Part shown: positions 1,314 through 24,517 of the stretch, in pieces
Layout of the letters: each line of letters starts with the position of its first letter
How positions within the stretch are numbered: position 1 is the first letter of the stretch
Origin: an uncultured Thermodesulfobacteriota bacterium
Lineage (GTDB): Bacteria > Desulfobacterota > Anaeroferrophillalia > Anaeroferrophillales > Tharpellaceae
Length of the DNA: 64,000 nucleotides
Direction of reading: 5' to 3'
Assembly: GCA_964457755.1 (NCBI GenBank)
Contig: CAYWGC010000001.1
Location: 64,332-128,331, forward strand
Notes under the pieces: model-generated
What the model saw: only the letters and a program-made list of their open reading frames with translations
Databases searched by the model: none
Told to the model about the DNA's origin: nothing
Program-made: the position numbers and the translations under genes

Positions 1314-1356
1314 AACTCCTCCATCCTTAAAGTTAAGTTAACTACAGGTACTGCAA

Positions 1357-5730: not shown

Positions 5731-5743
5731 ACAATATCTCCCT

Positions 5744-6656: not shown

Positions 6657-6690
6657 AGTCGTCAGGAATCAGTCGTCAGTCGTCAGTAAA
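6657..6690. repeat. Short direct heptamer repeats (cagtcgt)n in the dapB upstream region
   Basis: cagtcgtcag-gaat-cagtcgtcagtcgtcagt. Four copies of gtcgtca within 34 bp, about 100 bp upstream of the dapB start. Confidence 0.35.
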
Positions 6691-6719
6691 ATCTTACAAT
6701 CTGCAATCTTCCGATTACC

Positions 6720-8033: not shown

Positions 8034-8034
8034 A

Positions 8035-9324: not shown

Positions 9325-9392
9325 TGACTTAAAAATACTCCACGAAAAGATAACCCGAACAATAAGTTACTCAACTTTCAGGATTGCTAAAA

Positions 9393-9607
9393 GACTAAAT
9401 TTACAAGTTTAATTAAACCACTTCAGGATATGACTTTATTTTGCCTTTCTCTGCGTCTTTGCGTCTCTGCGGGAAAATTCTTTTTATCTCCCGCAAAGAC
9501 GCAGAGACGCAGAGACGCAGAGACGCAGAGAAAAACCGCGATGTTAACAAACATCAAAATTTTTAAGTTTACATTTGATTAAGTTGGGTCAAATCAGAAA
9601 ATTGAGA
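9393..9607. repeat. About 200-bp structured intergenic repeat element, family B copy 1, with a long inverted repeat and (gacgcaga)x4 tandem tract
   Basis: Nearly identical to 14424-14621 (shared gactaaatttacaagtttaatta...tttattttgcctttctctgcgtctttgcgtctctgcgggaaaat.ctttttatctcccgcaaagacgcagag...cagaaaattgag). Arms ctctgcgtctttgcgtctctgcggga / tcccgcaaagacgcagagacgcagag form a roughly 26-bp hairpin. The copy number of the 8-bp unit gacgcaga differs between the two elements. Confidence 0.7.
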
Positions 9608-9720
9608 AAGCTGATAGATAGTTCACACTCAAAGCTTGACGTAGTCGAACAATCTCTATAAGCTCTGGCAAATTAACACATCAACGCCGCGATTACCAGC
9701 CGAGTTATGAGAACAAAAAC

Positions 9721-10371
9721 ATGGATCATTCTAAATATCTACAAGAAACACCCTTTATTGACATCAGCAGCCAAACCCTGCGCGAGCAAACCCAAAAACT
9801 GGTGACGGAGATAATCGACCCCCGAGAACAGATCAAAGCTATCTTCTTCTTCGTCCGGGATGAAATCAAGTACAATCCCTACACCTCTTTTTTCCACCCC
9901 GAAGATTATACCGCCAGCAAAGTCCTGAAAAGAGGCGAAGGTTTCTGCATTCCGAAAGCTTCTCTCTTTACCGCCATGATGCGGATCCTCAAAATCCCCG
10001 CCAAACTCTACTTTGCCGACATCAAAAACTACAAAGCCCCGAAGAAACTAACTGATATCATGGGTAATCTTTTTATTTTTCACTGCTATTGCGGCGTTTG
10101 GATCGACGATCGCTGGATTAAACTGGCCCCCACCTTCAACCGCGATATGTTTACAAAAATCGGGGTTGAAGCCAATGACTTTGATGGTTTTCATGATGCC
10201 ATCCTGCCGGCAACCAACCTTAACGGAGAAGTTTTCGTTGAATACGTCAAGGATCGGGGTGAAAATCATGACATTCCCTATAAAGAGATAATCGCTGCCT
10301 TCAGCCATAGCTACGACAAAGAAGTAATCAAAAAATTGGGTCTAAGCACCTTTCAGGATTGCCGCCCATAG
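9721..10371 (+). CDS. Transglutaminase-like superfamily protein (putative cysteine protease)
   Basis: GEGFCIPKASLFTAMMRILKIPAKLYF matches the transglutaminase-like core motif GxCxxxAxLFxAxxRxxGIPAR, which carries the catalytic Cys. Confidence 0.6.
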   Translation: MDHSKYLQETPFIDISSQTLREQTQKLVTEIIDPREQIKAIFFFVRDEIKYNPYTSFFHPEDYTASKVLKRGEGFCIPKASLFTAMMRILKIPAKLYFADIKNYKAPKKLTDIMGNLFIFHCYCGVWIDDRWIKLAPTFNRDMFTKIGVEANDFDGFHDAILPATNLNGEVFVEYVKDRGENHDIPYKEIIAAFSHSYDKEVIKKLGLSTFQDCRP

Positions 10372-10889
10372 AGGCATCCACCACCCGACTTCTTATATTA
10401 GGTTCCATGCCGGGGCAAGAGTCTTTGCGCCGGCAGCAATACTACGCCCATCCTCGTAATGCTTTCTGGTTCATCATGAACTCCCTCATCGACCTGAAAG
10501 AGGGTACGAGCTACATAGAGCGCCTGGATTTTCTGAAAAAAAACCAGATTTCACTCTGGGATGTTATCAGAAACTGCATCCGGCCCAGCAGCCTTGACAG
10601 TGATATTGTCAATTTAAGCGAAGTGCCAAACAAGCTTGATGAGTTTTGCCGGCGTCACCCCGAACTTGAGGCCATCGCTTTTAACGGGCGCAAAGCCCGG
10701 AACTCATTTACCCGCCACTTCCTGCGACCCAATAAAACCCGCTGGCAAAACCTTAAATTAATCGACCTTCCCTCAACCAGCCCGGCCCACGCCGCCCTAC
10801 GGCCGCCAGCAAAACTTAAACTCTGGCAAAAGAGCCTGATTCCCTTTCTGACTCCCTCACCTAAAACCAAACACCTCAGCAATTTGTAA
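10359..10889 (+). CDS. DNA-deoxyinosine (hypoxanthine) glycosylase, UDG family 6
   Basis: LLILGSMPGQESLRRQQYYAHPRNAFW is the signature N-terminal motif of the hypoxanthine-DNA glycosylase family. The annotated start overlaps the upstream gene by 13 nt. Confidence 0.7.
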   Translation: MPPIEASTTRLLILGSMPGQESLRRQQYYAHPRNAFWFIMNSLIDLKEGTSYIERLDFLKKNQISLWDVIRNCIRPSSLDSDIVNLSEVPNKLDEFCRRHPELEAIAFNGRKARNSFTRHFLRPNKTRWQNLKLIDLPSTSPAHAALRPPAKLKLWQKSLIPFLTPSPKTKHLSNL

Positions 10890-10910
10890 TTTTATCTGGT
10901 TTCCGCTATA

Positions 10911-12380
10911 TTGCTTTTCATGAAAGAACGAGAGATAGTCAGGCACAACCCTGCGACAAGATCCTGCCCGCATTTAAGGCTCACAGCCATCCTGTTCCTG
11001 ATTCTGCCTCTATGGCTTTCGGGCTGCGACTTTCCCAATCTGAACGCCCTGCTCAAACCGCTGACCCTTAAATCGGGCACCCTGAGCGTTATAACCCGCA
11101 ACATCCCCACGGCTTACTATCATGGCCCGGAAGGAGAGATGGGTTTTGAGTTTGAAATGGCTCAAGCTTTTGCCCAAGATCTCGGCCTTAAACTTGAAAT
11201 CAAGGTGGTCGATTCGATCAGCGACATCCTCTCAGCTATGGCAGAAAGCCGGGCCGATATCGCCGCTGGCGGCCTAACCAGAACCCCGGAGAGAGAAAGA
11301 CTTTTCATCTTCGGCCCTGACTATCTCACAGTTCAACAAAAACTGGTCTACCGTAAAAATAGCCCCCGGCCACGTGACCTAGAGGATTTGAAAAATTTTG
11401 ACCTAGTCGTCCTCGCCCGTAGCAGCTACGAAGAGCGTCTGCACGAATTGCGAAACCAATTTCCAGAACTTAAATGGCGGGCAACCGATACTTTCAGCAC
11501 TGACCAGCTCCTCGAACAAGTCTGGCTTAAAAAACTGTCCTGCACTATCGCTGACTCTAATATTCTCGCGGTCAACCGCCGCTACTACCCGGAATTAAAG
11601 GTCGCCTTTTCGATCAGCGAAGAACAACCACTGGCTTGGCTCCTCAACTCAAAACACAAAAAACTGCAGCAAAAACTGCAAAATTGGTTTAAAAAATTTC
11701 AAAAAAGTGGACGTTTTGAGGCTCTCAAAGAGCGTTACTACGGACATGCCGAGATCTTTGATTATGTCGACATCAAAATCTTTTTGCGCCGCATCAAAAC
11801 CCTGTTACCCACATATCGGCCTCTCTTTGAAAAATATGGCAAGAAGTTCGATATCCCTTGGACGCTGCTTGCGGCCAAAGCCTACCAGGAGTCCCATTGG
11901 AACCCCTTGGCAACCAGCCCCACCGGAGTTCGCGGTATCATGATGCTGACTCAAACTACAGCCGACCACTTGGGAGTTAAAGACCGCCTCGCAGTTAACG
12001 AAAGCATCGAAGGCGGGGCCCGCTATTTTCGCCAGCTACTGGACCGGGTTCCCGACTCCTACCCGGAAAAAGACCGGCAAAATGTCGCCATGGCCGCCTA
12101 TAATGTCGGCATGGGGCATATCTATGATGCCCGCCATCTGGCTCGAACCTTGAACAAAAACGCAAACCACTGGACCACCATTAAAGAGGTTTTACCGCTC
12201 TTAAGTCAAAGGAAGTACTATAAAAAGTTAAGGCGCGGCTACGCCCGGGGACAGGAACCCGTAAACTATGTCGAGAGGATCAATAATTACCGGGATATTC
12301 TAGAAAAAAAAATGGGACTTTTGGAGAGCGATCATTTTTCCTATGACCCTTTGCTTATCAGCCATACAGGGGAGTTGTAA
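10911..12380 (+). CDS. mltF: Membrane-bound lytic murein transglycosylase F (periplasmic substrate-binding-like domain plus SLT domain)
   Basis: Lipoprotein signal (LWLSGC). N-terminal type-3 solute-binding-protein-like domain. C-terminal SLT motif AKAYQESHWNPLATSPTGVRGIMMLTQTTA. Confidence 0.8.
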   Translation: MLFMKEREIVRHNPATRSCPHLRLTAILFLILPLWLSGCDFPNLNALLKPLTLKSGTLSVITRNIPTAYYHGPEGEMGFEFEMAQAFAQDLGLKLEIKVVDSISDILSAMAESRADIAAGGLTRTPERERLFIFGPDYLTVQQKLVYRKNSPRPRDLEDLKNFDLVVLARSSYEERLHELRNQFPELKWRATDTFSTDQLLEQVWLKKLSCTIADSNILAVNRRYYPELKVAFSISEEQPLAWLLNSKHKKLQQKLQNWFKKFQKSGRFEALKERYYGHAEIFDYVDIKIFLRRIKTLLPTYRPLFEKYGKKFDIPWTLLAAKAYQESHWNPLATSPTGVRGIMMLTQTTADHLGVKDRLAVNESIEGGARYFRQLLDRVPDSYPEKDRQNVAMAAYNVGMGHIYDARHLARTLNKNANHWTTIKEVLPLLSQRKYYKKLRRGYARGQEPVNYVERINNYRDILEKKMGLLESDHFSYDPLLISHTGEL

Positions 12381-12390
12381 ATGAATCAAC

Positions 12391-13254
12391 TTATGAGCCA
12401 TTATCGACACTCATCATCATATAACGATCCTGGCTGACATCGAGATGGATCAGGCGACCACGCTCATGCGTAAGAAAGCGATTCAAAATATATAGCGGTA
12501 AAGTTTCATAGTAGGCGCAGAAGGACTCATAAAGGTAGCGTTTACAGACATTATTAACGGCCATAATTTCTGCCACTTGAACAGCAGAAAAACGACTTGA
12601 AAAGGCCAGCCGGGTTCCGGCCTCAGCCGACAACAACAATTGCTTTAGTTGTGCTTCATTCAGGGCTTTGGGCTCTATCGCAAAGGTTCCGAGAGCGCCT
12701 TCGGCTGCGGCCTTTAACAACTGCCAGTTACTTCCCTCACCTAGTCTTGTCACTTCATCAACCCCCAAAAGTTTTTTAGCAAGTTCTGGTTTTGCAATCC
12801 ACTCATCAACACCGCCAACAAGTATCGCTCTCTCTTTGCCTGAAGTGATATCAATTAAGGCTAAAAGCAACGCCATCTGAACTGGGAAATGGTGGTGTTG
12901 CAAAAACAGGTTTTTACCATTGAGCCCAAGATGACTGGCCACGTAAAAACCGGCCGTATTGCTTGAGAGATTGACAAAATCGACCGGTTTCGACATCATT
13001 TTATCAAAATAACGCTGGCGCCTGACCCGGTCGAAAACCATTATATCACCCTGGCCCGAAGTCATATAGATCGCAGTCTCGGAAGAGATCTCGGACTCGG
13101 CTACAGCTTTATGGGCGCCAATGATTGCGAGCTCGACAAAATGGTCAAGGCGACGATAAACTTTACCACTTAAAATTTTAAGTTCGCTCTTAAGATCAGG
13201 TAATTGCTGGTCAGGAATAGTATTATGGAGACCGACTGCGTGGATATAGATCAT
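12391..13254 (-). CDS. Ketosynthase-like chain-length-factor (CLF) type protein lacking the active-site Cys
   Basis: 287 aa with thiolase-fold KS-like sequence. The position of the KS catalytic Cys reads SSNTAGF (no Cys). Overlaps the upstream KS gene by 4 nt (translational coupling), as in KS/CLF heterodimer pairs. Confidence 0.55.
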   Translation of the reverse strand: MIYIHAVGLHNTIPDQQLPDLKSELKILSGKVYRRLDHFVELAIIGAHKAVAESEISSETAIYMTSGQGDIMVFDRVRRQRYFDKMMSKPVDFVNLSSNTAGFYVASHLGLNGKNLFLQHHHFPVQMALLLALIDITSGKERAILVGGVDEWIAKPELAKKLLGVDEVTRLGEGSNWQLLKAAAEGALGTFAIEPKALNEAQLKQLLLSAEAGTRLAFSSRFSAVQVAEIMAVNNVCKRYLYESFCAYYETLPLYILNRFLTHERGRLIHLDVSQDRYMMMSVDNGS

Positions 13255-14393
13255 GACGCCATTTTCTCGATCACAAATGAAGTATTATTGCCACCGAAAC
13301 CGAAATAGTTAAGCATGAAATGGCCTGAAGTCAGAAACAGAGATTGAGTAACCGGCGAACTGGAAAATTCACAATCAAGAGTTTCGCAGTTGATTGATGC
13401 CGGGATAAAACCGGCATCAACACTCTCCATCAGCAGCAAAAGCTCGGCCACCCCGCAACCACCAAGCGTGTGGCCGATGTAAGGTTTCAAAGAAAGATAT
13501 GGTGGCAACGCGGCAAAAACCTGCTCCATACCGCGCATCTCAGCTTGATCGTTGAGATCGCTGGCGGTTCCGTGAGTTTTGATCGCAGTAATCGTTTCCG
13601 GCCCAATCACGGCATCAGCCAGAGCTGCCTGGATCACCTGAGCAATCCCGGCACCACTGGGATGGGCTCCGATCACGCTGAAGGTTTCGCAACTACTCCT
13701 ACCACCAAGATAGCACCATGCCGACGGCATAATATCATCCCGGCTGAGCAAAACGGCACTGACGGCCTCACCTAAGACAATACCGTTGCGATTTTGCGCG
13801 AAGGGGCGAATGGCTTCAGGGGAGAGCAGCTGCATCATCGCAAACCCTTCAAGAGTCGTCGGCGAATAGAGCTCTAGTCCCAGAACCAGGGCAAAATCGA
13901 TAATTTCACCTTCCAGCATTGAAACTGCGGCCAGCAAAGCGTTGGCGCTGGAGGTACAGGCCGTATTAAAGGTTAACGAAGGGCCGCTAAAAGCAAAGCG
14001 TTGACTCAAACTCTCAAGATAGTTACCACCCCCGACCCGTTTACGATCACACCTTAAGACAAAATCTTCAGCAACGCTCTCTTCAATTGGCCACGCCAAA
14101 GAGTAATCAATCGAGGAAGAACCGAGAAAAACTCCAACATTGTCAAGATCAGAAGCTTGCAATTTGAGCTTTCGCAACAAGCTGTTGACCACCCGGTCAA
14201 GATAATTATCGACAATCGCAGGGTCACTGAGGCGAGAGGTCTCATCAATACGGTAATAAGGATAAGTCACCTCAACCTGGCCGACATCAACCGTAACCGT
14301 CCCGATATTCGGTTTACCTCGGCGCAGGGCGGCAAGCCTTTCAGGGCCATCCCCCAGAGCGCAGAGCAATTCACCACCGACAATTGTAATCAT
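13251..14393 (-). CDS. Beta-ketoacyl-ACP synthase (KAS I/II-like)
   Basis: 380 aa. Cys-His-His triad motifs NTACTSSANAL, KTHGTASDLND, IGHTLGGCG. Confidence 0.8.
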   Translation of the reverse strand: MITIVGGELLCALGDGPERLAALRRGKPNIGTVTVDVGQVEVTYPYYRIDETSRLSDPAIVDNYLDRVVNSLLRKLKLQASDLDNVGVFLGSSSIDYSLAWPIEESVAEDFVLRCDRKRVGGGNYLESLSQRFAFSGPSLTFNTACTSSANALLAAVSMLEGEIIDFALVLGLELYSPTTLEGFAMMQLLSPEAIRPFAQNRNGIVLGEAVSAVLLSRDDIMPSAWCYLGGRSSCETFSVIGAHPSGAGIAQVIQAALADAVIGPETITAIKTHGTASDLNDQAEMRGMEQVFAALPPYLSLKPYIGHTLGGCGVAELLLLMESVDAGFIPASINCETLDCEFSSSPVTQSLFLTSGHFMLNYFGFGGNNTSFVIEKMAS

Positions 14394-14423
14394 TCAGCCT
14401 CAACTTCATGGATTTCTATAAAT

Positions 14424-14621
14424 GACTAAATTTACAAGTTTAATTACATCACTTCAGGATATAACTTTATTTTGCCTTTCTCTGCGTCTTTGCGTCTCTG
14501 CGGGAAAATGCTTTTTATCTCCCGCAAAGACGCAGAGGCGCAGAGAAAAACCGCAATGAAAACAAAGATCAATTTTTTTAGGATTACATATCAGAGATTA
14601 AGGTTAATTCAGAAAATTGAG
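14424..14621. repeat. About 200-bp structured intergenic repeat element, family B copy 2 (fills the ACP-KS intergenic gap)
   Basis: Collinear with 9393-9607. Carries the same roughly 26-bp hairpin, but only one or two copies of the gacgcaga unit. Confidence 0.7.
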
Positions 14622-14629
14622 ATTCAACC

Positions 14630-14899
14630 CTACTCCGGCTGGATGAAATCGGCCAGTTCATTGATCGTCGTTACATGGCGGCGAAAAGCCTTACTATCCG
14701 GTAAACGAATCCCAAACTGGCTCTGCAGTCCCATAAGAATCTGCAAAGCATCGAGTGAGTCGAGCTCAAGACCACTCGCATCAGAGAAGATCTGGACATC
14801 ATCAGCCACATCTTCAGGCCTAACCTCATCTTTCTCACACTCTTCAATAATCATCTCTTTCAAGCGCAGTTTCAGCGCCGCATCTTGAGACCCCTTCAT
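14630..14899 (-). CDS. Acyl carrier protein
   Basis: 89 aa. LELDSLDALQIL phosphopantetheine-attachment motif (DSL). Confidence 0.8.
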   Translation of the reverse strand: MKGSQDAALKLRLKEMIIEECEKDEVRPEDVADDVQIFSDASGLELDSLDALQILMGLQSQFGIRLPDSKAFRRHVTTINELADFIQPE

Positions 14900-16092
14900 A
14901 ACCCTCTATTCTGTTTATAGTTAAACACCATCCCGGCAATCAGCAGCAGCGCCACCCCAAAACCAGCTAATTTAAGCGAGTCGGCAAGCACCGCTTCCGG
15001 GCCCAAGCCACGCAGGAATATATCTAAAAAACCCTCGAGTCCCCAAGACATCGGAGAGAGATTGGCAAACTCCTGCATCGAGTGCGGCATATAGAATTTC
15101 GGCACCATAATGCCGCCAATGGCCCCCATCAGGATATTAATAATACCACCGACCGTGGTCGCCTGCTCCACGGTTACCGCCGTCACCGCGATTAAGATTG
15201 AAGTCCCCACCGCCGCCAGACTGAGTCCCAATGAGACCATGAGCAAGCCGACAAGCGAATCTCCTAGGGTCAAGGCATCAGCCCCGCAAAGCGGGACAAC
15301 AAAGATGCCGACCGCAATCATCAACCAGACCTGAATCTGGTTAATGACAATGTAGGGTGCTATTTTACCAGCGAAGAGAGCCGGTACCGAGATATTCATC
15401 GCACTCATACGCATCAAGGTATGCTGGCGGCGTTCATTGACAAAGATTGTCGACATCGGGATGATGATAAAAAACATCCCGAAAACTATCCACGACGGCA
15501 CACTTTGCTGGGTCGAGGTTGGTTTTTCGTCAGGTTGCCGGGTATTAAAGCGAACTTTAACGATACCCTCTCCATTAAAATCCAACACTTCAAGTTTTTG
15601 GGCCACCTCAGGTAAAAAGGGGGCGAGTTCGGTTTTCATCTTTGCGAACCGCAGCCGCATCACTCCGGTCACAACTTCCGTCTCAAATAGAGTCAGCATC
15701 TCCGGTCTGACATCGGCAGCGGCCGAAAGCAAGAGCAGGCTCCCGACAGGCTCATCTTGCGCATAGCTTTGGGCAAAACCTTTGGGAATCGTCAGAACAA
15801 ATTGCAGCTCTCCTGGAAAAACCCTCTTGTAACCGGCATCATCTGCAATTACCGCCGGTTGCTCTTGCAGCACTCTCTGGGCAACTAAAAATGTCCTTAA
15901 TTTGGCACTCTGAACACTCTGATCAAGGTCAACCACGGCATATTTCAGCAAGGCCCGTTCACTGTTAAACGTATCTTTAAGCGCCAACGACATAATCAAA
16001 ATAAAGATCGCAGGCATAATAAAGAGTGCGGCCAATGCATGTTTGTCACGAAAAACCAGCCGAAACTCTTTGCTCAACATTACCTTAAACAT
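14896..16092 (-). CDS. ABC-2 type transporter permease
   Basis: 398 aa. One N-terminal TM helix, a large periplasmic loop and five C-terminal TM helices, typical of ABC-2 exporter permeases. Overlaps the ATPase gene by 8 nt. Confidence 0.75.
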   Translation of the reverse strand: MFKVMLSKEFRLVFRDKHALAALFIMPAIFILIMSLALKDTFNSERALLKYAVVDLDQSVQSAKLRTFLVAQRVLQEQPAVIADDAGYKRVFPGELQFVLTIPKGFAQSYAQDEPVGSLLLLSAAADVRPEMLTLFETEVVTGVMRLRFAKMKTELAPFLPEVAQKLEVLDFNGEGIVKVRFNTRQPDEKPTSTQQSVPSWIVFGMFFIIIPMSTIFVNERRQHTLMRMSAMNISVPALFAGKIAPYIVINQIQVWLMIAVGIFVVPLCGADALTLGDSLVGLLMVSLGLSLAAVGTSILIAVTAVTVEQATTVGGIINILMGAIGGIMVPKFYMPHSMQEFANLSPMSWGLEGFLDIFLRGLGPEAVLADSLKLAGFGVALLLIAGMVFNYKQNRGL

Positions 16093-17008
16093 CGCTTACC
16101 CCGGATGAGGTCAAACGAATAAAAAGGGTTTCAAGATTTGTCGTGCCGTAACGAATCTGCTTGATGGCGATCTTTTCAGCTTCCAAGACGGTGAGCAAAG
16201 CCCCCATTTTGCTACTGTTATGACGATCTATCATCAATGTTGTAGCATCGACAAATTTCACATCTGCATATTTTTGAGTAAGCTCTCGGAGCTGAGCTTC
16301 ATTTGCATGCAGAAGTTCAATAACAACCGAATCGGCTCTTTCCTCTTGCAACAGGGTTTCAAGCAAGCCCTGACGAATGATGCGACCCTGATCAATGATA
16401 GCGACCTCATCACAAATCTTCTCAATCTCAGGCATATAATGGGAGGTATAGATGACTGTTTTGGCATCGTTTTTAAAAGCGCGGATGGTCTCTAAGATCT
16501 CGTTGCGACCGTCGGGGTCGATGCCGACGGTGGGTTCGTCAAAATAGAGAAGTTCAGGGTTATTAAGCAGCCCGATAGCGATATTGAGGCGGCGCTTCTG
16601 CCCGCCGGAGAGGATACCCGCTTTTTGCTTGAGCAGCGCCTGAAGCCGGTTGACAGAGATCGCATAATCAAGATTGTGCCGCAGCGTTCTGCCGGTAATT
16701 TTTTGAATCCCGGCAAAAAAACGCAAGTTTTCGATGACACTCAAATTTTCATAGAGCGCCAGAGTTTGAGGAATAAAAGCCGTGCGTCTGCGGATCTCGG
16801 CAAGCTCTTTAGACAACGACAATCCAAAAACTTCGATCTCGCCCGCTTGAAAACCGGTCAATCCATTAAGAATCGAGACCAGCGTCGTTTTCCCAGCCCC
16901 ATTGGGCCCCAGCAGGCCAAAGATGACACCTGTGCCAACCCTTAGATCGAGATGATCCAGAGCGAGAAGATCGTCGTAACGCTTGACGAGATTTTTGATT
17001 ACGATCAT
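16085..17008 (-). CDS. ABC transporter ATP-binding protein
   Basis: Walker A GPNGAGKTT, signature LSGGQKRRL, Walker B LLYFDEPT. Confidence 0.9.
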   Translation of the reverse strand: MIVIKNLVKRYDDLLALDHLDLRVGTGVIFGLLGPNGAGKTTLVSILNGLTGFQAGEIEVFGLSLSKELAEIRRRTAFIPQTLALYENLSVIENLRFFAGIQKITGRTLRHNLDYAISVNRLQALLKQKAGILSGGQKRRLNIAIGLLNNPELLYFDEPTVGIDPDGRNEILETIRAFKNDAKTVIYTSHYMPEIEKICDEVAIIDQGRIIRQGLLETLLQEERADSVVIELLHANEAQLRELTQKYADVKFVDATTLMIDRHNSSKMGALLTVLEAEKIAIKQIRYGTTNLETLFIRLTSSGVSDV

Positions 17009-17050
17009 GAAAGGGTCACTTTAATCAAGTTAAGACATTCGAGAACGCTA

Positions 17051-17133
17051 AGCTGCTTTGCTTCGCCGTGAGCACAGCGAGGAAGTGCCCTTGGGGTGCG
17101 CCCTCATAAACGGGGCCAAAGCTGGACAAATGG
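17051..17133. repeat. Dispersed intergenic repeat, family A copy 2 (longer variant), located between the BtrH-like and ABC ATPase genes
   Basis: agctgctttgcttcgccgtgagc...ccctcataaacggggccaaagctggacaaatgg. Shares the ttgcttcgccgtgagc module with 62162-62202 and the tcataaa.gggg.caaagct.gacaaa module with 2244-2289. Confidence 0.45.
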
Positions 17134-17222
17134 CAAGTCAAGATTTTGACTCACGCGATTATCCCGGTTGCCCTCTGTCCAGCAATGACCCCACCCGAGA
17201 CAGATCGGATATTTTAACACCT

Positions 17223-18254
17223 TCAAAGGAGTTTTTTGTAAACTTCAGCTTCGGCATTGGCAACGCTTTCGAGTTTAGTTTGCAAAGCTATAAAATCAAT
17301 TTTCTGGCTCTTTTTGCTGCGGATCGCTTTGGCTATCATCAGGGCAAATTCGCGCCACTGATCGCCGACAAGAGTCATTATCTGCGACGCCTCTTTAAGC
17401 TTATCACTCTCGATTATAGTACCCGCCTCCTGCAGAAATGAGGCATAGATAAAACGAAAACCCGCACCTCCCGTACCAATCTCTTCCTGCATCCTGACAA
17501 TATGACCCAAAAAGAGCTTCGCATAACGAAGCTCTTTTTTCTCCAGTTTGCCGATGGATTTCGCTAAAGCCCGGATCCCGCGTATGCCAGCAATCGGTAC
17601 CGGCGTTTTCAACATCGCCTTAGCAGTTTTCTTGACAACTTTCGAAATAATAATTTCATAATCGATGGTTTCAGGGACTTTCACCGGATAGTAGAGCAAA
17701 CCTTTCGGTGCCATCACCCCTTTGACAAAACGCGCCTTCTCCAACGCTTTAACCTGACAGCGCACCGGGGCCTCGAAAACCGGGTCGCTGATCAGATATT
17801 CAGCTCCCTCTTTACCGTAAACAATCAGGTTGTGAGCATTAAAATGAAAACGCATCTCCTCGGGGAAATAGGGGAGCCAAAAAACCGAACTCTGGACACC
17901 AATAATTTCACCTTGATCTAACAGATCATCCAGAGCTTTTGTCCCTTGTTGAGAATCGGCAAAGGTCTGCATCTTCATCTTGACCCCAAGATTTTTCTGC
18001 AACCCTTTAATAATCGCTTTCGGCATACTGCGATAGGCAATCAGCGGCATCCCGCCAAGTTTGACAAACGGGATATAGGCAAACATCAAGGCACCGGAGA
18101 GACCGAAGACCATCGCTTCGGATAGTGGCAAACCATGATGACGCATCATTGACGACATAACCCCACTCTCACAATGAGCTGAATGGGTATGTTCAAAAGT
18201 CTGGCTAGGCACCGCTCCCCCCTCGTTGCGGTAAGCGACAAAGTTCTTCCACAC
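17223..18254 (-). CDS. Hypothetical protein, possibly BtrH-N-like (papain-fold) acyl/aminoacyl-carrier-protein transferase
   Basis: 343 aa. N-terminal HCESGVMSSMMRHHGLPLSEAMVFGLSG resembles the Cys-containing core of BtrH_N/DUF4872-type proteins. The assignment is by motif recollection only. The start may be at a downstream Met, since the ORF overlaps the next gene by 50 nt. Confidence 0.3.
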   Translation of the reverse strand: MWKNFVAYRNEGGAVPSQTFEHTHSAHCESGVMSSMMRHHGLPLSEAMVFGLSGALMFAYIPFVKLGGMPLIAYRSMPKAIIKGLQKNLGVKMKMQTFADSQQGTKALDDLLDQGEIIGVQSSVFWLPYFPEEMRFHFNAHNLIVYGKEGAEYLISDPVFEAPVRCQVKALEKARFVKGVMAPKGLLYYPVKVPETIDYEIIISKVVKKTAKAMLKTPVPIAGIRGIRALAKSIGKLEKKELRYAKLFLGHIVRMQEEIGTGGAGFRFIYASFLQEAGTIIESDKLKEASQIMTLVGDQWREFALMIAKAIRSKKSQKIDFIALQTKLESVANAEAEVYKKLL

Positions 18255-18621
18255 TTAACCCCAGGGTCTCGGCATAACCCTCAATCAACTCTTGAGAAAG
18301 CTTGGCGAAAACCGACGGCTTGAGATGACGTTTAAGGCGCCACTTGAAAATTCCACTCGCCTGGGCCAGGGTCGACAGATCCATTCTTTGATTGTACATA
18401 TGAAAATACAATGGCGCGAATTTGCCGACAACCACAGACTCATAGGCTTCTTCCGCCAGACGCTCAAGTTCTTGAAGCGCCTGGGTTGTAACCTCGGCTT
18501 CTACTTGCCAACCGGACGATGCGACAATCGCATATTCACCCGTCACGCTGGTCGCGTAGATCGCTTTTTTATGGTTGGCGAGAGTCGAGACATTATCCTG
18601 AGGAACCGCTGCGCTCTCCAC
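18205..18621 (-). CDS. Hypothetical protein (138 aa) within the DAR-type cluster
   Basis: ORF immediately downstream of the darB-like gene (stop and start adjacent). No recognisable motif. Confidence 0.4.
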   Translation of the reverse strand: MESAAVPQDNVSTLANHKKAIYATSVTGEYAIVASSGWQVEAEVTTQALQELERLAEEAYESVVVGKFAPLYFHMYNQRMDLSTLAQASGIFKWRLKRHLKPSVFAKLSQELIEGYAETLGLSVEELCRLPQRGGSGA

Positions 18622-19782
18622 TCAGACCACCGTCAGATGCATAAATGCGGTTGAAAAACGGCCGCTTTCGGGAATAAAACAGAGCAGTTTCTCCCCTTTT
18701 TTCAAAGAACCTGAGTTAAAAAGTTCTTCCAGGATAATATAGATTGAGGCCGAACCCGTATTGCCTTTCGAACTTAAATTTGTAAACCACTTTGCTTGGG
18801 GAATATCGCAACCGGCCTCCAGCATCCCTTCGTAAACCTTGTCGCGAAAAAAACCTGACGAGTAATGCGGCAGGAGCCAGTCAACCCTTCCCGCATCAAC
18901 TTTACCTTGCCCCACAAGCTCTAAAAGAGGTTTCGTCACCGTATACTCAACAATCTTCTCATTGAGCAGTTTAACATCCTGTTTGATCGGGAAAATTGAC
19001 TGCTCCAACAGCTCTTGGGGAAGATACTCGCGCCATCCCTTTAAAGAACCATTTTCAAGTTTGTCGGCTCCAGCGTACATACAGGCTTCAAGCTCGTTGG
19101 CATAGGACTTCTGATAGATCCAATCAACCTGCAAGGAGAGCCCTTCGGAATTTGGTCTATCACTCATCCAGACCGCCCCGGCACCATCACTCAACATCCA
19201 ACGCAAAAAATCTTTCTCGAAAGCAATTGCCGGATTTTTCTCGAGCTGAGCGACACGTGAATCGATCTCTTCTGCGAAACTTGAGCCGCGCATCATCGAT
19301 GAGATATTCTCCGAACCGGTAGCCACCGCATTTTTACTCTGCCCCGAAAGAATCGCAAGATAGCCATATTTCAGTGACATGGTTCCGGCCAAACAGATTC
19401 CGGCGGTCGCAACAACTTCACAGGAAGGAATAGCAAGTTCTCCGTGAACCATCAAAGCGTGATTCGGCATTAGCTGGTCCGGCAAAGCCGTACCACAAGC
19501 CAGTAACGCTATTTCATCGATGGCACAGCCCTGCTCGCCAAGTTTACGAATAGCTTGAGCTGCAAGCTCAGCATTAGTATGGGTCGCTGCGCCCGTATCC
19601 GGGTCAACTGCGTAATATCTGGAAGTAATCTGGTTGCTGCGCAAAATCAGTTTACGAACCCGTGAGGGCCGTTCACCCACCTGCCCTAAAACCGACTCCA
19701 TCGCCTCATTTGAAACCGGCTGGTTCGGCAAAAAAGCCGCAACCTTATTGATATAAACCTTTTGTAACATATATTCTCTCAA
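18622..19782 (-). CDS. darB: FabH/KAS III-like condensing enzyme, DarB-like (dialkylresorcinol/cyclohexanedione-forming ketosynthase)
   Basis: 386 aa thiolase-fold KAS III-like protein (…ALLACGTALPDQ…, …SDGAGAVW…). Sits directly downstream of a DarA-like gene. The stop codon of the upstream gene abuts its start (19783/19782). Confidence 0.6.
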   Translation of the reverse strand: MREYMLQKVYINKVAAFLPNQPVSNEAMESVLGQVGERPSRVRKLILRSNQITSRYYAVDPDTGAATHTNAELAAQAIRKLGEQGCAIDEIALLACGTALPDQLMPNHALMVHGELAIPSCEVVATAGICLAGTMSLKYGYLAILSGQSKNAVATGSENISSMMRGSSFAEEIDSRVAQLEKNPAIAFEKDFLRWMLSDGAGAVWMSDRPNSEGLSLQVDWIYQKSYANELEACMYAGADKLENGSLKGWREYLPQELLEQSIFPIKQDVKLLNEKIVEYTVTKPLLELVGQGKVDAGRVDWLLPHYSSGFFRDKVYEGMLEAGCDIPQAKWFTNLSSKGNTGSASIYIILEELFNSGSLKKGEKLLCFIPESGRFSTAFMHLTVV

Positions 19783-20694
19783 TTATTTACCTGAAGGCTG
19801 TTCATAGTAAGTGACGGCTTCGTCAATAGTATTTTTTTTAAAAGGATAGATGAGCTTACGTATCAACAGGTTCAAAGGCACAACCGTCACTATCAAGAGC
19901 AGTAGAAAAATCGCATAGATCGTAATCACTATATTGCGCCCTCGGGAATTTGGAGGACCCGCTTTTTTAATCAAACGACTCCAAATCAAAAAACTGCGGT
20001 GAGCGATACGCTCGGACGCTATCAGTTTTCCGTTGACATCAACGGCCCCCAGATTGCACAACATCGAAGCACCACTTATCTCTTCGTCTTTGTGTAAAGC
20101 CTTGCACAAACGTTCGCCGAAACGTGAAGCCGCAACAATGACCGCCTCAGAAATCCCAGCTTTGGGAAAAAACCAGAAAGCATCTTTTTTCCCAGTCAAG
20201 AGCCACCGCGGCGTCGTCACGAAGGTGTAGAGCGATCTCCCTTGATCCGTCAGCACCACGTTATCGACAAGCCGGGCCCCAAGATCATCAAGCAATGATT
20301 TCATTTTCTCCTGGGCGAGCAACCACATATCACGACAGGCGATTACGGTCACAACCGGCTTATTTTTAAAGATGCGTCGAGCCGCTTGACTCTGCAAGAA
20401 ACCGGTCACCGGTATCGAAGGCGAGAGAAACCAGACAGTGTAACCCAGAATAATTAAATCGTACTCTTTGTCAAACTCGAACGCTTCCACAGCGCAGCCA
20501 TCAAGATAGACCGCTTCGGGAAAAGTATTGAAAAATTTATAAAAAGGCCAGGGGTAAGGATATGGACTCAGCGGCTTGATTTCACAATAATCACACTCTA
20601 CCCTATCATCTTGCTCCAGGGGTGAAACAATCCGCTTCAAAACCTTTTCAAGTTGGCCGCTTTGCGAATAGTAAAGTACTAAAACTTTTTTCAT
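19783..20694 (-). CDS. darA: DarA-like protein (dialkylresorcinol biosynthesis partner of DarB) with a C-terminal membrane anchor
   Basis: 303 aa. N-terminus MKKVLVLYYSQSGQLEKVL is the flavodoxin-like start typical of DarA-family proteins. C-terminal TM segment IVITIYAIFLLLLIVTVVPL. Adjacent to the KAS III-like gene, as in darAB(C) loci. Confidence 0.5.
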   Translation of the reverse strand: MKKVLVLYYSQSGQLEKVLKRIVSPLEQDDRVECDYCEIKPLSPYPYPWPFYKFFNTFPEAVYLDGCAVEAFEFDKEYDLIILGYTVWFLSPSIPVTGFLQSQAARRIFKNKPVVTVIACRDMWLLAQEKMKSLLDDLGARLVDNVVLTDQGRSLYTFVTTPRWLLTGKKDAFWFFPKAGISEAVIVAASRFGERLCKALHKDEEISGASMLCNLGAVDVNGKLIASERIAHRSFLIWSRLIKKAGPPNSRGRNIVITIYAIFLLLLIVTVVPLNLLIRKLIYPFKKNTIDEAVTYYEQPSGK

Positions 20695-20712
20695 AAAACC
20701 TTGACTCTTATT

Positions 20713-21297
20713 TTACAACAGCCAGGGAATAAACATCCGCGTCCGCTGCATGTAATCGGCATATTCCGGGCCAAAAAAGATTACATTTTCACGTTCCTCA
20801 ACCTTTGCTGCCACTATGAGGAATGCACTGACCAAAAGAACTATGATAAGATTCAAAAAATTAACCTGTTTGAAAAAAGCCCCCCACCCTAAAAAGAGAA
20901 GCGAGGCATACATCGGATGTCGGACATGGCGATAGAGACCCTCTTCGACCACCGCAACCGTATTTTCAAAAGAGTGGTTCTCCGGCACCTCCTCACGTTC
21001 GGCATGGCCGCCGCACCGTCTTAGAAGGAAAAAAGAGTAAGCCACAAAAAAAACCGAGACCAACAAAAGAGACCAGGAGATGAGCTGCAGAAAAGAAAAT
21101 GGATTTTCAAACCAGTAGGGCTGATTTCGCAAAACTAAAATCAGAAGCCCTTCGAAGACAAAGAAGCGATAGAAACCGTGACTCCCCGGATTAGTTAAGG
21201 CGCGCCGGGAAAAACGCACAAAAAAGATAGTACAGAGGATAAAAAGGGCAATCCGTAACATTAGAGCTTGGCACTTTCCAAAAAGGCATTGTCCCAA
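20713..21297 (-). CDS. Isoprenylcysteine carboxyl methyltransferase (ICMT)/phospholipid methyltransferase family membrane protein
   Basis: 194 aa polytopic protein with the ICMT C-terminal motif EEGLYRHVRHPMY and a downstream Glu. Overlaps the thiH stop. The real start may be Met13. Confidence 0.65.
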   Translation of the reverse strand: MGQCLFGKCQALMLRIALFILCTIFFVRFSRRALTNPGSHGFYRFFVFEGLLILVLRNQPYWFENPFSFLQLISWSLLLVSVFFVAYSFFLLRRCGGHAEREEVPENHSFENTVAVVEEGLYRHVRHPMYASLLFLGWGAFFKQVNFLNLIIVLLVSAFLIVAAKVEERENVIFFGPEYADYMQRTRMFIPWLL

Positions 21298-22388
21298 TCT
21301 TTCCAGACCGCTTCATAACCACGCGCGGCGAGCAATTTCGCGAACTCCGCCGGACTACGCTCATCACTAATGGCAAATTGTTGACCTTCATCACTCTCAT
21401 CACTGTAACCACCTGGGGCCGTACAGGAACCGGAACTCATCTGAGTAATCCCCAAAGGCAGTAGATTATCACGCAACTCAGAACTTTCCCGGGTTGAAAG
21501 AATTAGCCCGGCATCGTGAATCAGGAGGCGTAAAGCACAGATAAACTGGGTCAGTTGCCGATCAGAAACCAGACTGCGCGGCTGAAAACCGCCCTCTGCC
21601 GGACACAAGCGTGGAAAAGAGATGGTAACCTGGGTACGCCAGAAACGCCGGGCCAGATAGAGGGCGTGCAGACCAGTATAGAAGACATCGGTCAAACAGT
21701 CACCCAAACCCAACAGAGCCCCAACCCCAATCCGCCGCAGACCCGCTTCGCCGGCCGCTTCCGGCGCCTGCAGACGAAATTCATAATTACTTTTCGGACC
21801 GTAGGGATGCAGTTCCCGGTAGAGTTCAATATTATAGGTCTCCTGATAGACTGTTAAACCATCAACGCCAGCCTTTACCATCCGCACATAACCGTCAAAA
21901 TCCATGGGGAAAACCTCGATTGAGATCGAGCCACAGAGCGGTTTAATCTGCTTGATGGCCGCTTCCAGAAAATCGATGCCAGCCACTTTCGGAGCCTCTC
22001 CGGTAAGCAGTAAGAGGTGCCGAAAACCATGCTGGCGCAAGACCTGAGCCTCAGCTTCAATTTCAGGCATAGTCAAGGTTCTTCGCGGCATATCATTATC
22101 AGCATTAAAACCACAATATTTACAGCCGTTATGACACTCATTTGAAAGATAGAGAGGGGCATAGAGTTGAATGATACGGCCAAAACGCTGAGAGGTGATG
22201 CGATGGGCCTGGCTCGCCATCTCTTCAAGCTGGTCATCACTGACCTGCGGTGAGAGCAGAGAGGCAAAATCTTCGGGGCTTAAACGAGGCCGTCGTAAAG
22301 CTTGATCTATTTGGGCCGGGGTCGTAGCCAGAATGCGCTCACGCAATTGGGTTTGCGGATATTGCTGAAGTTCTTGCAGAAAACTCAT
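21261..22388 (-). CDS. thiH: 2-iminoacetate synthase ThiH (radical SAM tyrosine lyase)
   Basis: 375 aa. Radical SAM cluster motif YLSNECHNGCKYCGF, characteristic of ThiH. Located in a thiS-thiG-thiH arrangement. Confidence 0.85.
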   Translation of the reverse strand: MSFLQELQQYPQTQLRERILATTPAQIDQALRRPRLSPEDFASLLSPQVSDDQLEEMASQAHRITSQRFGRIIQLYAPLYLSNECHNGCKYCGFNADNDMPRRTLTMPEIEAEAQVLRQHGFRHLLLLTGEAPKVAGIDFLEAAIKQIKPLCGSISIEVFPMDFDGYVRMVKAGVDGLTVYQETYNIELYRELHPYGPKSNYEFRLQAPEAAGEAGLRRIGVGALLGLGDCLTDVFYTGLHALYLARRFWRTQVTISFPRLCPAEGGFQPRSLVSDRQLTQFICALRLLIHDAGLILSTRESSELRDNLLPLGITQMSSGSCTAPGGYSDESDEGQQFAISDERSPAEFAKLLAARGYEAVWKDWDNAFLESAKL

Positions 22389-23161
22389 TATTTGTCCCTC
22401 AAAAATCCGGTTAAAGGGCTTGAGGCTTGGGCTTTCTGGCGCTGTGGACCGAGCCCTGCAAGATAGGCTTGGCGACCGGCTTCAACTCCTTTGCGAAAAG
22501 CCGAAGCCATGGCTGCCGGATCCGGGGTGTCAGCTAGAGCGGTATTGACAAGAACTGCATCAGCGCCCATCTCCATCGCTTCGGCCGCATGCGAGGGAGC
22601 ACCAAGACCGGCATCGACAACCACCGGCACCGTCGCCTGTTCAATGATTATAGCAATCAGATCGCGCATGCGGACCCCGCGATTGCTACCGATCGGGGCG
22701 CCTAAAGGCATTAAGGTGGCAACCCCAACCTCTTCCAGATGCTTGGCTAAAACTGGATCGGCCGGCATATAGGGGAGTACAATAAAACCATCCTTAACCA
22801 GGATTTCCGCCGCTTTCAAGGTCTCGATTGGATCTGGAAGCAGATAGTAGGGATCAGGCGTAACCTCCAACTTTATCCAGGGCTCACATCCGGCCGCCCG
22901 AGCCAGACGGGCTAATCGCACCGCCTCTGAAGCATCGCGGGCCCCACTGGTGTTAGGTAAAAGCAGATAACGTTGACGATCGATATGGGAGAGCAGCGAA
23001 TCCTCGGGGTTGTCAATATCAACCCGACGTAGGGCAACCGTAACAATTTCTGAGCCCGAATGTTCCATGGCCGCAACCATCGCCTGATTCGAGGCAAATT
23101 TTCCAGTTCCAACTAAAAGTCTTGAGTTGAAGGAACGGCCCGCGATTATTAATTTATCCAT
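22388..23161 (-). CDS. thiG: Thiazole synthase ThiG
   Basis: 257 aa. [12 protein letters not shown]...VTVALRR N-terminus and TIM-barrel ThiG family features. Confidence 0.9.
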
Positions 23162-23198
23162 AATAAGAATATCCCGTAGTTTCTAAAAATAATTGACT

Positions 23199-23399
23199 TC
23201 AACCACCACCAACGAACTGGATCAACTCCAAAGTATCACCATCCCTAAGCCGGGTATCAGCATATCTATCGGCTGTCAAAATATCCCGGTTCAGCTCAAC
23301 CACGACCCGCTCAGGATTAAGCTCCAGGGTTTCAAGCAGCTCCAAGATATTGATAAGCTCCGGAGATTCCCGGTTTTGACCGTTGACAGACAAACGCAT
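23199..23399 (-). CDS. thiS: Sulfur carrier protein ThiS
   Basis: 66 aa beta-grasp protein ending in the GlyGly C-terminus (…IQFVGGG). Lies between thiF and thiG. Confidence 0.8.
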   Translation of the reverse strand: MRLSVNGQNRESPELINILELLETLELNPERVVVELNRDILTADRYADTRLRDGDTLELIQFVGGG

Positions 23400-23413
23400 A
23401 GATCTTCGTTCCT

Positions 23414-24217
23414 TTAAGGTTCTTCACCAAGCAGTAGTCTTAAAACCGCATTGGCTTGATGATGTGCGGCAATCCCGACCCGGGGAGCCAGCAAACCCTG
23501 ACCCGGCTCTACGGCAGTCACAGCGTCACCACAGATATAGAGATTTTCAGCTGCTTTACGGGTCGTAATACTGTTTGCAGGTTCATAGCCAGCCATCCCC
23601 GAAGCCGCCACCAACGGTATCTGCGGAAAGTTACTTAAAAAATGGCTGACCAACATGGTTTTCTGAGCGACCACATCAAAAGCTTCAACCATAACATCAA
23701 CCCCGGAAAAATAAGTTGGCAGATTGACGGAAGTAATTTTTTCATGAATAGCTTTTAGCTCAACGAAGGGATTGATACGCGCTATAAGATCCCGCAAAGC
23801 CAGCACTTTCGGCAGACCGATCTGATCGATAAAATAGTGCTGCCGATTCAGGTTGGAAGGCTCAACCAGATCAAAATCAGCAACCACCAGTTTTCCAACC
23901 CCGACCCGGGCCAAAGCGACCGCAATGTTTGAACCAAGCCCACCGACACCGGCAATACCGACACAGCTGTTTTTGATTTTTTCGTGTACACCTGGCGTAT
24001 GACGAGCCCGCATCAGGGCTTCAAGATCCGTTGCTGTCGGCTGTTCGCCGTGACAAAGCAAAACCACTCGATCGCCATCTTTGAGTTTTTGGTCCTCATC
24101 AACCGGATAACCGTTGACAATTACCAGATCGGCATTCGGTTTCTGGCAATCACGCAGTTCAAAAAGAGAGACCCCGGCCTCAACTTGGAAAAACTCTTCA
24201 TTAACAACTATCTGCAT
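23414..24217 (-). CDS. thiF: ThiF (sulfur-carrier adenylyltransferase, E1-like) with an N-terminal ThiS/MoaD-like beta-grasp domain
   Basis: 267 aa. Residues about 1-65 (MQIVVNEEFFQVEAGVSLFELRD...DGDRVVLL) look like a ThiS-like domain. The remainder, GVGGLGSNIAVALARVGVGKLVVADFDLVEPSNLNRQ, is the ThiF/MoeB nucleotide-binding fold. Confidence 0.8.
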   Translation of the reverse strand: MQIVVNEEFFQVEAGVSLFELRDCQKPNADLVIVNGYPVDEDQKLKDGDRVVLLCHGEQPTATDLEALMRARHTPGVHEKIKNSCVGIAGVGGLGSNIAVALARVGVGKLVVADFDLVEPSNLNRQHYFIDQIGLPKVLALRDLIARINPFVELKAIHEKITSVNLPTYFSGVDVMVEAFDVVAQKTMLVSHFLSNFPQIPLVAASGMAGYEPANSITTRKAAENLYICGDAVTAVEPGQGLLAPRVGIAAHHQANAVLRLLLGEEP

Positions 24218-24517
24218 AAATTAAAAAAGGCCACCATACGGCGGCCGCTATGGCTCTTTTCCACAAAAGGGTTCACAGACGCATACTGCCTGCAGGATCA
24301 CCACTGCAAATATCATAATATATCTACTATATCAATGGCAAAAAAGCCGTTCCTGATCTGAGCGGCAACTACCAGATCAGAAAACGACCCCAGACTGATC
24401 GTCCAGACGAGCCAAAAAAGTAAAAACATATTTTCCCCGGAGTACAATCCATCGCGAAAAATCACTTCATCTTTACTCTAAAAAAAGATCGTGTTATACT
24501 TTTTCTGAATTTTGCGC

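Follow-up and report, generated by a model that had tools for sequence, protein, structure and literature searches.

Organization of the gene array

A compact set of lipid-biosynthetic genes is located in a 64-kb stretch of DNA (the window) from an uncultured Thermodesulfobacteriota bacterium. Judged from its sequence, this region is very probably an intact, extended dar module for the production of a membrane-associated 2,5-dialkylresorcinol (DAR) lipid. Coordinates are positions in the whole window, not in the module.

The module is part of an array of ten intact open reading frames (ORFs) on the minus strand, spanning positions 21261 to 12391. The ORF list confirms the ten consecutive genes of the original prediction. 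From the upstream end, they encode a membrane methyltransferase-like protein of the ICMT/PEMT family (20713-21261, 182 residues); DarA, the putative dialkylresorcinol 'aromatase' (19783-20694, 303 residues); DarB, a head-to-head condensing ketosynthase of the StlD/DarB family (18622-19782, 386 residues); a DarG-family protein (18205-18621, 138 residues; DarD in Azoarcus); DarH, a BtrH-related putative acyltransferase (17223-18254; DarE in Azoarcus); the ATP-binding (16085-17008) and permease (14896-16092) subunits of an ABC-2 type exporter; a dedicated acyl carrier protein (ACP; DarC, 14630-14899, 89 residues); a ketosynthase (KS) similar to FabF and to those of type II polyketide synthases (PKSs) (13251-14393, 380 residues; DarJ in Azoarcus, DarD in Chitinophaga pinensis); and a chain-length factor (CLF)-like partner (12391-13254, 287 residues), named DarK as in Azoarcus.

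The genes are tightly packed throughout, except at two gaps of 236 nucleotides (nt) (gap 1, 14394-14629) and 214 nt (gap 2, 17009-17222). Overlaps of 4 nt are found at the DarK/KS and ACP/permease junctions, and of 8 nt at the permease/ATPase junction. Taking the longest ORFs, DarG and DarB as well as DarB and DarA are separated by 0 nt, and DarA lies 18 nt from the methyltransferase-like gene. The DarB start is probably at 19770 (382 residues) and that of DarH at 18212 (329 residues). A TTG codon at 21297 had been taken as the end of the array, but the methyltransferase-like gene most likely begins at the ATG at 21261, because the resulting 182 residues are the uniform length of its family and this ATG shares 1 nt with the stop codon of thiH (TAATG). 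Moreover, the co-directional array runs on unbroken past 21297 into thiH-thiG-thiS-thiSF. A convergent mltF gene bounds the module on the downstream side. Each ORF has the median length of its own family across the related loci, and hence there is no sign of decay. The arrangement is not due to chance, as the synteny is kept in most of the 80 related loci described below.

The core enzymes DarB and DarA

DarB scores 603 bits against the NCBIfam model for the StlD/DarB subfamily (NF005293, cut-off 450), while FabH models in the same collection give only 50-68 bits. The crystal structure of StlD (5gk0) aligns with DarB from end to end with 460 bits, as compared to about 49 bits for the best FabH, and the sequence is approximately 58% identical to StlD of Photorhabdus. 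The Cys-His-Asn catalytic triad (C130, H306 and N341) is kept in this alignment. The KAS III-like enzyme is thus placed with DarB rather than with FabH, as had been proposed.

DarA is located directly upstream of darB. Its close homologs are named 'dialkylresorcinol condensing enzyme' by NCBI, and over its full length it shares 48% identity with the gene that takes the place of darA in a darA-darB-acpP trio carried by a plasmid of Burkholderia pseudomallei. It also has a weak sequence match to flavin mononucleotide (FMN) flavoproteins. In the AlphaFold2 (AF2) model (pLDDT 81), the N-terminal part has a flavodoxin/WrbA-like fold and residues 251-297 form a long C-terminal helix, which agrees with the flavodoxin-like start and the membrane anchor described earlier. 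The original assignment of both enzymes is therefore borne out, by the subfamily model for DarB and by homolog names, the gene trio and the predicted fold for DarA.

The accessory genes of the module

The small protein encoded after DarB passes the NCBIfam DarG_fam model (NF053536) with 160.5 bits (cut-off 70), and a gene for this family is kept after darB in nearly all related loci. No sequence match to it was found in the PDB. DarH passes the DarH_acyl model (NF053550) with 502.7 bits (cut-off 300) and has Pfam matches to BtrH_N (169.5 bits) and DUF4872 (184 bits). With C28 as its N-terminal Cys residue, it corresponds well to the Cys-containing BtrH-N-like protein of the original prediction. 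A PDB sequence search with DarH returned nothing useful. BtrH, the namesake of DarH, is an ACP-dependent acyltransferase.

The expected ABC-2 exporter and ACP are both supported by Pfam. The ATPase subunit matches ABC_tran, with 228 bits to the NCBIfam DrrA subfamily, which is under the cut-off, and its position within the module is conserved across related loci. The permease subunit matches ABC2_membrane_3 (103 bits) and ABC2_membrane (75 bits). The ACP matches PP-binding (33 bits), and Ser48 in its DSL motif is the predicted site of phosphopantetheine attachment.

The KS matches both the N- and C-terminal ketoacyl-synt domains of Pfam and has a Cys-His-His triad (C146, H274 and H308). Its nearest relatives in the PDB are stand-alone KSs, 6qsp_A (127 bits) and also, among others, 6kxd_A, the ishigamide KS. 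For DarK there is no sequence match in the PDB, and only structure prediction resolved this protein. The AF2 model (pLDDT 90.4) has a thiolase fold, and the top Foldseek matches in the PDB are 6kxe_B, 6kxd_B and 6kxf_B (TM 0.73, E 4e-12); chain B of this ishigamide KS/CLF entry is taken here as the CLF subunit, as the Foldseek output shows the entry title only. The only Cys residues of DarK are at positions 237 and 246, which leaves the active-site position without Cys. By their triad, the Cys-less partner and the coupling of the genes, the KS and DarK fit the KS/CLF heterodimer type of type II PKSs at the level of sequence and predicted fold. The earlier description of a Cys-His-His KS translationally coupled to a Cys-less, CLF-like KS therefore stands, with the 4-nt overlap as the coupling.

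To our knowledge, no experiment in any organism has given a role to five of the nine conserved genes, namely those for DarG, DarH, the ABC pump, the KS and the CLF-like protein. Experimental work on DarG or DarH was not found in literature searches either. An ornithine-lipid or lipid A pathway was rejected, the sole trace of one being a 19-bit match to the ACP.

Conservation in related genomes

With DarA as the query, a scan limited to one genome per species gave 80 related loci, which were then searched by tblastn with all proteins of the window. Gene-family maps of the 80 loci were built beside this in an unbiased manner. The nine-gene module is kept in metagenome-assembled genomes (MAGs) of Desulfobulbales/Desulfocapsa as well as in Campylobacterota, Gammaproteobacteria, Gemmatimonadota and Natronospirales. 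For the last three of these, the half of the module with the transporter, ACP, KS and DarK is inverted but still adjacent.

The closest loci are in Desulfobulbales, Desulfocapsa and Thermodesulfobacteriota MAGs, and in the closest relatives (L002, L034 and L040) the module stands alone with an ICMT-like gene. Many other related loci embed the module among genes like those of flexirubin or aryl-polyene clusters. The embedding genes encode TAL/HAL, an extra KS and CLF, a ketoreductase (KR), dehydratases (DH), a thioesterase (TE), LolA and an MMPL exporter, and further a polysaccharide deacetylase, a halogenase and a glycosyltransferase. Four loci (L005, L009, L014 and L041) have ICMT, CrtI-like and radical-SAM genes bordering the module.

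One locus labelled as Sulfurimonadaceae (L011, JBNKLF010000003.1) has a DarA 75% identical to the Desulfobulbales type, compared to 54-62% for other Campylobacterota, which suggests a binning error or a recent horizontal transfer.

Comparison with known dar systems

A detailed comparison can be made with the dar cluster of Azoarcus sp. BH72 (azo0283-0293), which is part of arcuflavin biosynthesis (Schöner et al. 2014, PMC3949708). The nine functions of that cluster (darA, B, D, E, F, I, C, J and K) are the same as those in the window and are in identical order: DarA, DarB, a conserved hypothetical protein, a BtrH-like protein, the ABC ATPase, the permease, the ACP, the KS and a hypothetical, CLF-like protein (PMC3949708). 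In both organisms, the dar module is physically apart from polyene genes. There are three differences, however. Azoarcus has a Phd/PilT toxin-antitoxin pair (G and H) between the ATPase (F) and the permease (I), whereas the window has its repeat-filled gaps at other junctions. An ICMT-like gene is next to darA in the window but not in Azoarcus. Finally, known polyene clusters are present in Azoarcus, a betaproteobacterium of aerobic or microaerobic lifestyle, whereas the host of the window is an anaerobe and no polyene partner is known for it.

The dar genes for flexirubin in Chitinophaga pinensis and Flavobacterium johnsoniae (darA, B, G, H, I, J, C, D and E; Fjoh_1095-1103) are similar as well (PMC3992019; PMC12968099). 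They share DarA, DarB, DarG, DarH (BtrH_N), the ABC ATPase, the permease, the ACP and the KS with the window (PMC12968099), and the NCBIfam names DarG and DarH probably derive from these flexirubin genes. In comparison, the window lacks the M14 peptidase (darE) and the polyene genes, and its DarG passes the general DarG_fam model but fails the 'flexirubin DarG' model (117.6 bits, cut-off 170). These flexirubin producers and Azoarcus all attach their resorcinol to an aryl-polyene through an ester bond, and in Azoarcus and C. pinensis the polyene genes are not contiguous with dar (PMC3949708; PMC3992019). As polyene genes can be unlinked in those organisms, a module without KR, DH and TE genes inside it is normal.

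The minimal darABC type is represented by Pseudomonas aurantiaca/chlororaphis, which makes 2-hexyl-5-propylresorcinol, and by the B. pseudomallei plasmid trio (NZ_CP009155). It has DarA (48% identical), DarB (51% identical) and an ACP in common with the window, and the same core chemistry would be expected. It has no DarG, DarH, ABC pump or KS/CLF and makes free DAR (PMC6836626), whereas the window has all these genes. StlC/StlD of Photorhabdus (stilbene and cyclohexanedione) and BrtC/BrtD of Synechocystis (bartolosides) likewise pair an enzyme of the StlD/DarB family with a DarA-type aromatase. The accessory genes of brt are for glycosyltransferases, a halogenase and a DevBCA exporter, and DarG, DarH and KS/CLF are in neither the Stl nor the Brt system.

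Outside the dar systems, the ishigamide proteins Iga11/Iga12 (PDB 6kxd) also have a Cys-His-His KS coupled to a shorter, Cys-less partner of thiolase fold. DarK is much smaller than the ishigamide CLF (287 versus about 360 residues), with only about 14% sequence identity. Unlike a highly reducing type II PKS, the module has no KR or DH partner, and therefore iterative polyene synthesis is not expected from the module alone.

On sequence, the module is thus the ordinary extended form of a known, published dar module that occurs in several phyla. Specific to this locus are the anaerobic host, the lack of aryl-polyene genes in the window and the ICMT/PEMT-like neighbor. Literature searches turned up no paper that treats dar or aryl-polyene clusters of Desulfobulbales.

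The ICMT/PEMT-like methyltransferase

The protein encoded upstream of DarA passes the Pfam PEMT model marginally (26.9 bits, cut-off 25), and is below the cut-off for Pfam ICMT itself (22.1 bits, cut-off 24). With the NCBIfam isoprenylcysteine methyltransferase equivalog (NF040696), it has 48.5 bits, far under the cut-off of 160. Residues 103-179, the C-terminal cofactor-binding region, align to the ICMT of Methanosarcina acetivorans (4a2n) with an E value of 7.8e-6, and the alignment takes in the RHPMY and EE..FG..Y..Y segments. The PEMT match and this alignment support an ICMT-family membrane methyltransferase, as originally described. From its sequence, the protein is not assigned as a true protein-S-isoprenylcysteine O-methyltransferase.

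Among the related loci, 15 have the ICMT-like gene adjoining dar genes, and its placement varies between at least four arrangements. It is directly upstream of darA on the same strand in the window and seven related loci, convergent after the ACP in four, divergent upstream in two, and between DarH and the ATPase in one. A gene of this family is inside the dar module in L037. Campylobacterota and Gammaproteobacteria dar loci do not have it. In nine Desulfocapsa loci (L016, L017, L018, L021, L022, L025, L030, L032 and L050), a class I S-adenosylmethionine (SAM) methyltransferase of 206 residues occupies the slot directly upstream of darA, at a distance of about 620 nt, and it looks like a non-orthologous replacement of the ICMT-like gene. 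The suggestion that the product may be methylated gains some support from the 15 dar-adjacent loci and from these nine replacements.

Six long contigs (L082-L084 and L088-L090) were examined from the methyltransferase side. In all of them, the ICMT-like gene terminates a second cluster, with ACP and KS genes among its members. Five of the contigs (L082-L084, L088 and L089) also have a KS-CLF fusion (about 725 residues), KR, ApeP-like dehydratase, LolA and AMP-ligase genes in this cluster; the AMP-ligase, a B12 radical-SAM, LolA, KR and ApeP-like dehydratase genes are followed by the ACP, KS-CLF, B12 radical-SAM, CrtI-like and ICMT-like genes. The variant in L090 has an ACP, a KS of 411 residues, an acyltransferase, a B12 radical-SAM, a SPASM radical-SAM, the CrtI-like oxidase and the ICMT-like protein. 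In L083, L088 and L089, a DarB homolog and another B12 radical-SAM gene are convergent to the ICMT-like gene, without DarA; the one homolog measured, in L083, is 51% identical to DarB. In L082, L084 and L090, there are no dar genes within 10 kb of the ICMT-like gene. Hence the ICMT-like gene has links with dar genes as well as with a second lipid cluster, and these are adjacent where both occur. Overall, the gene is a clade-specific accessory of the dar module.

The clusters with CrtI-like and radical-SAM genes are found in Desulforhopalus, Desulfopila and related MAGs, at approximately positions 1-13000 of each locus. The Desulfobulbales cluster may be an oxygen-independent variant of aryl-polyene/resorcinol chemistry.

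Surroundings of the module

No aryl-polyene families were found in the window, either by tblastn with 15 neighbor families or by Pfam searches of the remaining large ORFs, and there are no polyene genes in approximately 5 kb beyond the window start. Similarly, no KR, DH, TE or adenylating enzyme was detected in or near the module by Pfam, NCBIfam or tblastn, in agreement with the original prediction. Within the window and the 5 kb beyond its start, the polyene genes together with the LolA, MMPL and deacetylase genes that mark a hybrid cluster of the flexirubin/arcuflavin type are thus not present.

The thiamine thiazole operon (a thiS-thiF fusion, thiS, thiG and thiH; 21261-24217) lies head to tail with the methyltransferase/dar array. 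Among the relatives, the ICMT-like gene adjoins thi genes only in L028 and L034, and the adjacency looks incidental. The dar module comes right after the thiamine genes and may share a transcript with them. An Rfam search of 12000-25000 (E <= 1) found no thiamine pyrophosphate (TPP) riboswitch upstream of the thi genes, and in promoter and terminator scans the terminator-like sites were no commoner than in shuffled sequence.

Both gaps in the array had been described as filled by repeat elements. This is solid for gap 1, of which a second copy is located at 9370-9607 (81% identity over 244 nt). A long imperfect hairpin is present at 14473-14552, and the only Rfam matches in 12000-25000 are sub-threshold ones of microRNA-hairpin families to this hairpin. 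The element of about 240 nt resembles a miniature inverted-repeat transposable element (MITE) or a repetitive extragenic palindromic (REP) sequence. For gap 2, which is unique by blastn, the description is weak but defensible. The gap has about 110 nt of similarity to the intergenic region at 2161-2399 and an exact 11-mer in common with 2248 and 39975, as a divergent copy of a shorter intergenic repeat family (2161-2399, 17009-17222, 39971-40002, and also 870-899). Common to its members is GGGGTCATTGCT...CATTTGTCCAGCTTTG.CCCC.TTTATGAG.GCGAAGCAAAG, and the 11-mer GCGAAGCAAAG has three exact copies, all on the minus strand.

The remainder of the window is housekeeping, with gyrA, dapB, ffh, uvrD, lysA, a branched-chain amino-acid transporter and cytochromes. 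A 300-nt direct repeat (288-587 and 902-1201, 71% identical) corresponds to two tandem genes for class III cytochrome c3, of 123 residues each. Genes for the cytochrome c maturation proteins ResB and CcsA, together with two cytochrome c3 genes, lie just outside the window start. The presence of cytochrome c3 and maturation genes fits a sulfur-cycling anaerobe. Together with the closest loci, these genes agree with the anaerobic 'deltaproteobacterial' host of the original prediction, and they fit a Desulfobulbales-like organism.

Two other regions of the window are of note. A single ORF of 1284 residues (27036-30890) encodes fused A and B subunits of a hydantoinase/oxoprolinase (caprolactamase- or acetophenone-carboxylase-like), and adjoins genes for an MFS transporter and a ferredoxin-domain protein. 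A B12-binding radical-SAM protein of 543 residues (55773-57404), next to a DUF6639 protein, an unannotated protein of 461 residues and a beta-helix protein, is only 27% identical to the dar-associated radical-SAM family. By sequence, it appears unrelated to the dar module.

Proposed product and mechanism

The most likely product of the module is a 2,5-dialkylresorcinol lipid, possibly methylated and possibly acylated. DarB enzymes join a beta-ketoacyl and a 2-enoyl thioester, giving a carboxy-cyclohexanedione, which DarA decarboxylates and aromatises to the resorcinol (PMC6836626). By family membership, the DarB described here would carry out this head-to-head joining through a Michael addition followed by a Claisen cyclisation, and DarA would act as a membrane-anchored, flavodoxin-like oxidoreductase that yields the resorcinol. 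The predicted fold and anchor of DarA are consistent with a flavin-dependent dehydrogenation at the membrane.

For the other proteins, fold, family and synteny suggest possible roles. The KS and its Cys-less partner would extend an acyl primer on the dedicated ACP, and this could supply the beta-ketoacyl substrate apart from fatty-acid synthesis. DarH may be an ACP-dependent acyltransferase or a hydrolase of the BtrH type. It would move an acyl group from the ACP to an acceptor, most plausibly a hydroxyl of the resorcinol, or release the ACP-bound product. The ABC-2 pump would then take the lipid out of the inner membrane, and the ICMT/PEMT-like enzyme might methylate it.

Several observations weigh against this interpretation or parts of it. 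DarB is just below the cut-off of the narrow resorcinol_DarB exception model (NF053539; 515.8 bits, cut-off 550), and is placed by its sequence in the StlD/DarB family while unassigned at the narrowest model level. No curated Pfam or NCBIfam model matched DarA, which has only the weak flavodoxin match, and its membership is therefore based on the homolog names, the darABC trio and the predicted fold. For C. pinensis, expression of darA and darB alone gave DAR in Escherichia coli (PMC3992019), and the Azoarcus DAR-biosynthesis proteins likewise yielded DAR in that host (PMC3949708). As darA and darB suffice in E. coli, the KS/CLF, ACP, DarG, DarH and pump are not needed for the core reaction and would act in precursor supply or downstream. 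The roles given to these proteins above are guesses. In addition, about fourteen Desulfobulbales modules (L003, L005, L006, L008, L009, L012, L014, L015, L024, L027, L029, L032, L041 and L050) stop at the ACP, without the KS/DarK pair and with several kb of flank present, which argues that the pair is dispensable to the module. Finally, genes for a CrtI-like amine oxidase and a B12 radical-SAM protein precede the ICMT-like gene in every one of the six long contigs. With these as its usual partners, the substrate of the ICMT-like enzyme may not be the resorcinol.

Alternative interpretations

The original prediction considered the module a reduced, possibly new DAR variant, in which a private KS/CLF pair and exporter replace the usual aryl-polyene machinery. 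The lack of KR, DH, TE and adenylating enzymes in and near the module is in accord with this view. However, a 2014 paper described this very gene set and order in Azoarcus (PMC3949708), the same are also known from C. pinensis and F. johnsoniae, NCBIfam already has DarG and DarH models, and the set occurs in dozens of genomes alongside polyene genes rather than in their place. A new variant is therefore extremely unlikely. The product could also be a diffusible cyclohexanedione (CHD) or resorcinol signal, like the DAR and CHD quorum signals of Photorhabdus, that is exported by the ABC pump. The identity of DarB to StlD and the dedicated exporter point in this direction, and papers such as PMC7154725 discuss DARs and CHDs as signals. 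On the other hand, there is no gene for a LuxR-solo or PauR-type receptor in the neighborhood, DarA is predicted to be membrane-anchored, and the extended module accompanies outer-membrane pigments in characterized hosts (PMC3992019). We consider a signaling function improbable.

Two further possibilities concern the extent of the pathway. It is quite conceivable, if still tentative, that the module makes one half of a hybrid lipid or pigment, in which an ester bond, plausibly made by DarH, joins the resorcinol to a chain (acyl or aryl-polyene) produced by genes elsewhere in the genome. The partner in this clade would be the cluster with ACP, KS-CLF, KR, ApeP-like dehydratase, LolA, AMP-ligase, B12 radical-SAM and CrtI-like genes. 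DAR is esterified to a polyene in every organism with an extended module and a known product (PMC3992019; PMC3949708), and free DAR belongs to the minimal darABC type (PMC6836626). The many relatives in which the module sits among polyene-type genes, the four loci in which it abuts the ICMT, CrtI-like and radical-SAM genes, and the separation of the dar and polyene clusters in Azoarcus as well (PMC3949708) are all consistent with such a hybrid. Against it are the absence of polyene-type genes from the window and the 5 kb beyond its start, and the closest relatives in which the module is alone with the ICMT-like gene. This possibility is compatible with the assignment of an extended dar module for a DAR lipid and refines it. 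The ICMT-like gene could instead be outside the resorcinol pathway, either as a leftover of the CrtI-like/radical-SAM cluster or as the last gene of the thiamine operon, which we regard as somewhat unlikely. Its partners in the six long contigs, the three of these without a nearby dar gene, the overlap of its start with the thiH stop codon and its absence from Campylobacterota and Gammaproteobacteria dar loci would be explained in this way. However, the gene stays next to darA where the CrtI-like neighbor is lost (the window, L001, L002, L004, L028, L034 and L040), lies inside the dar module in L037 and beside a DarB homolog in three of the six contigs, and adjoins thi genes in only two relatives. 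Moreover, nine other loci have a class I methyltransferase in its position upstream of darA.

Implications

The extended dar module is present, intact and conserved, in anaerobes of the sulfur cycle, organisms for which no resorcinol lipid or aryl-polyene pigment turned up in literature searches. Genome-mining tools would probably flag the module as a resorcinol cluster, and to the flexirubin/DAR field it is textbook. Strict anaerobes of the Desulfobulbales type could use the module for an unseen class of envelope lipid, either a free, methylated DAR or a resorcinol ester with an acyl half that oxygen-independent B12 radical-SAM and CrtI-like enzymes build and tailor. We consider this idea unlikely as it stands. 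If true, the lipid would be an anaerobic counterpart of flexirubin-type pigments, with the ICMT-like step shared and linking both clusters. What DarG, DarH, the pump and the KS/CLF pair do, and what is made in anaerobes, are questions that concern the whole family rather than this locus in particular. Standing alone but for an attached methyltransferase gene, and away from polyene genes, the copy described here would be a clean, minimal system for studying the roles of the accessory genes.

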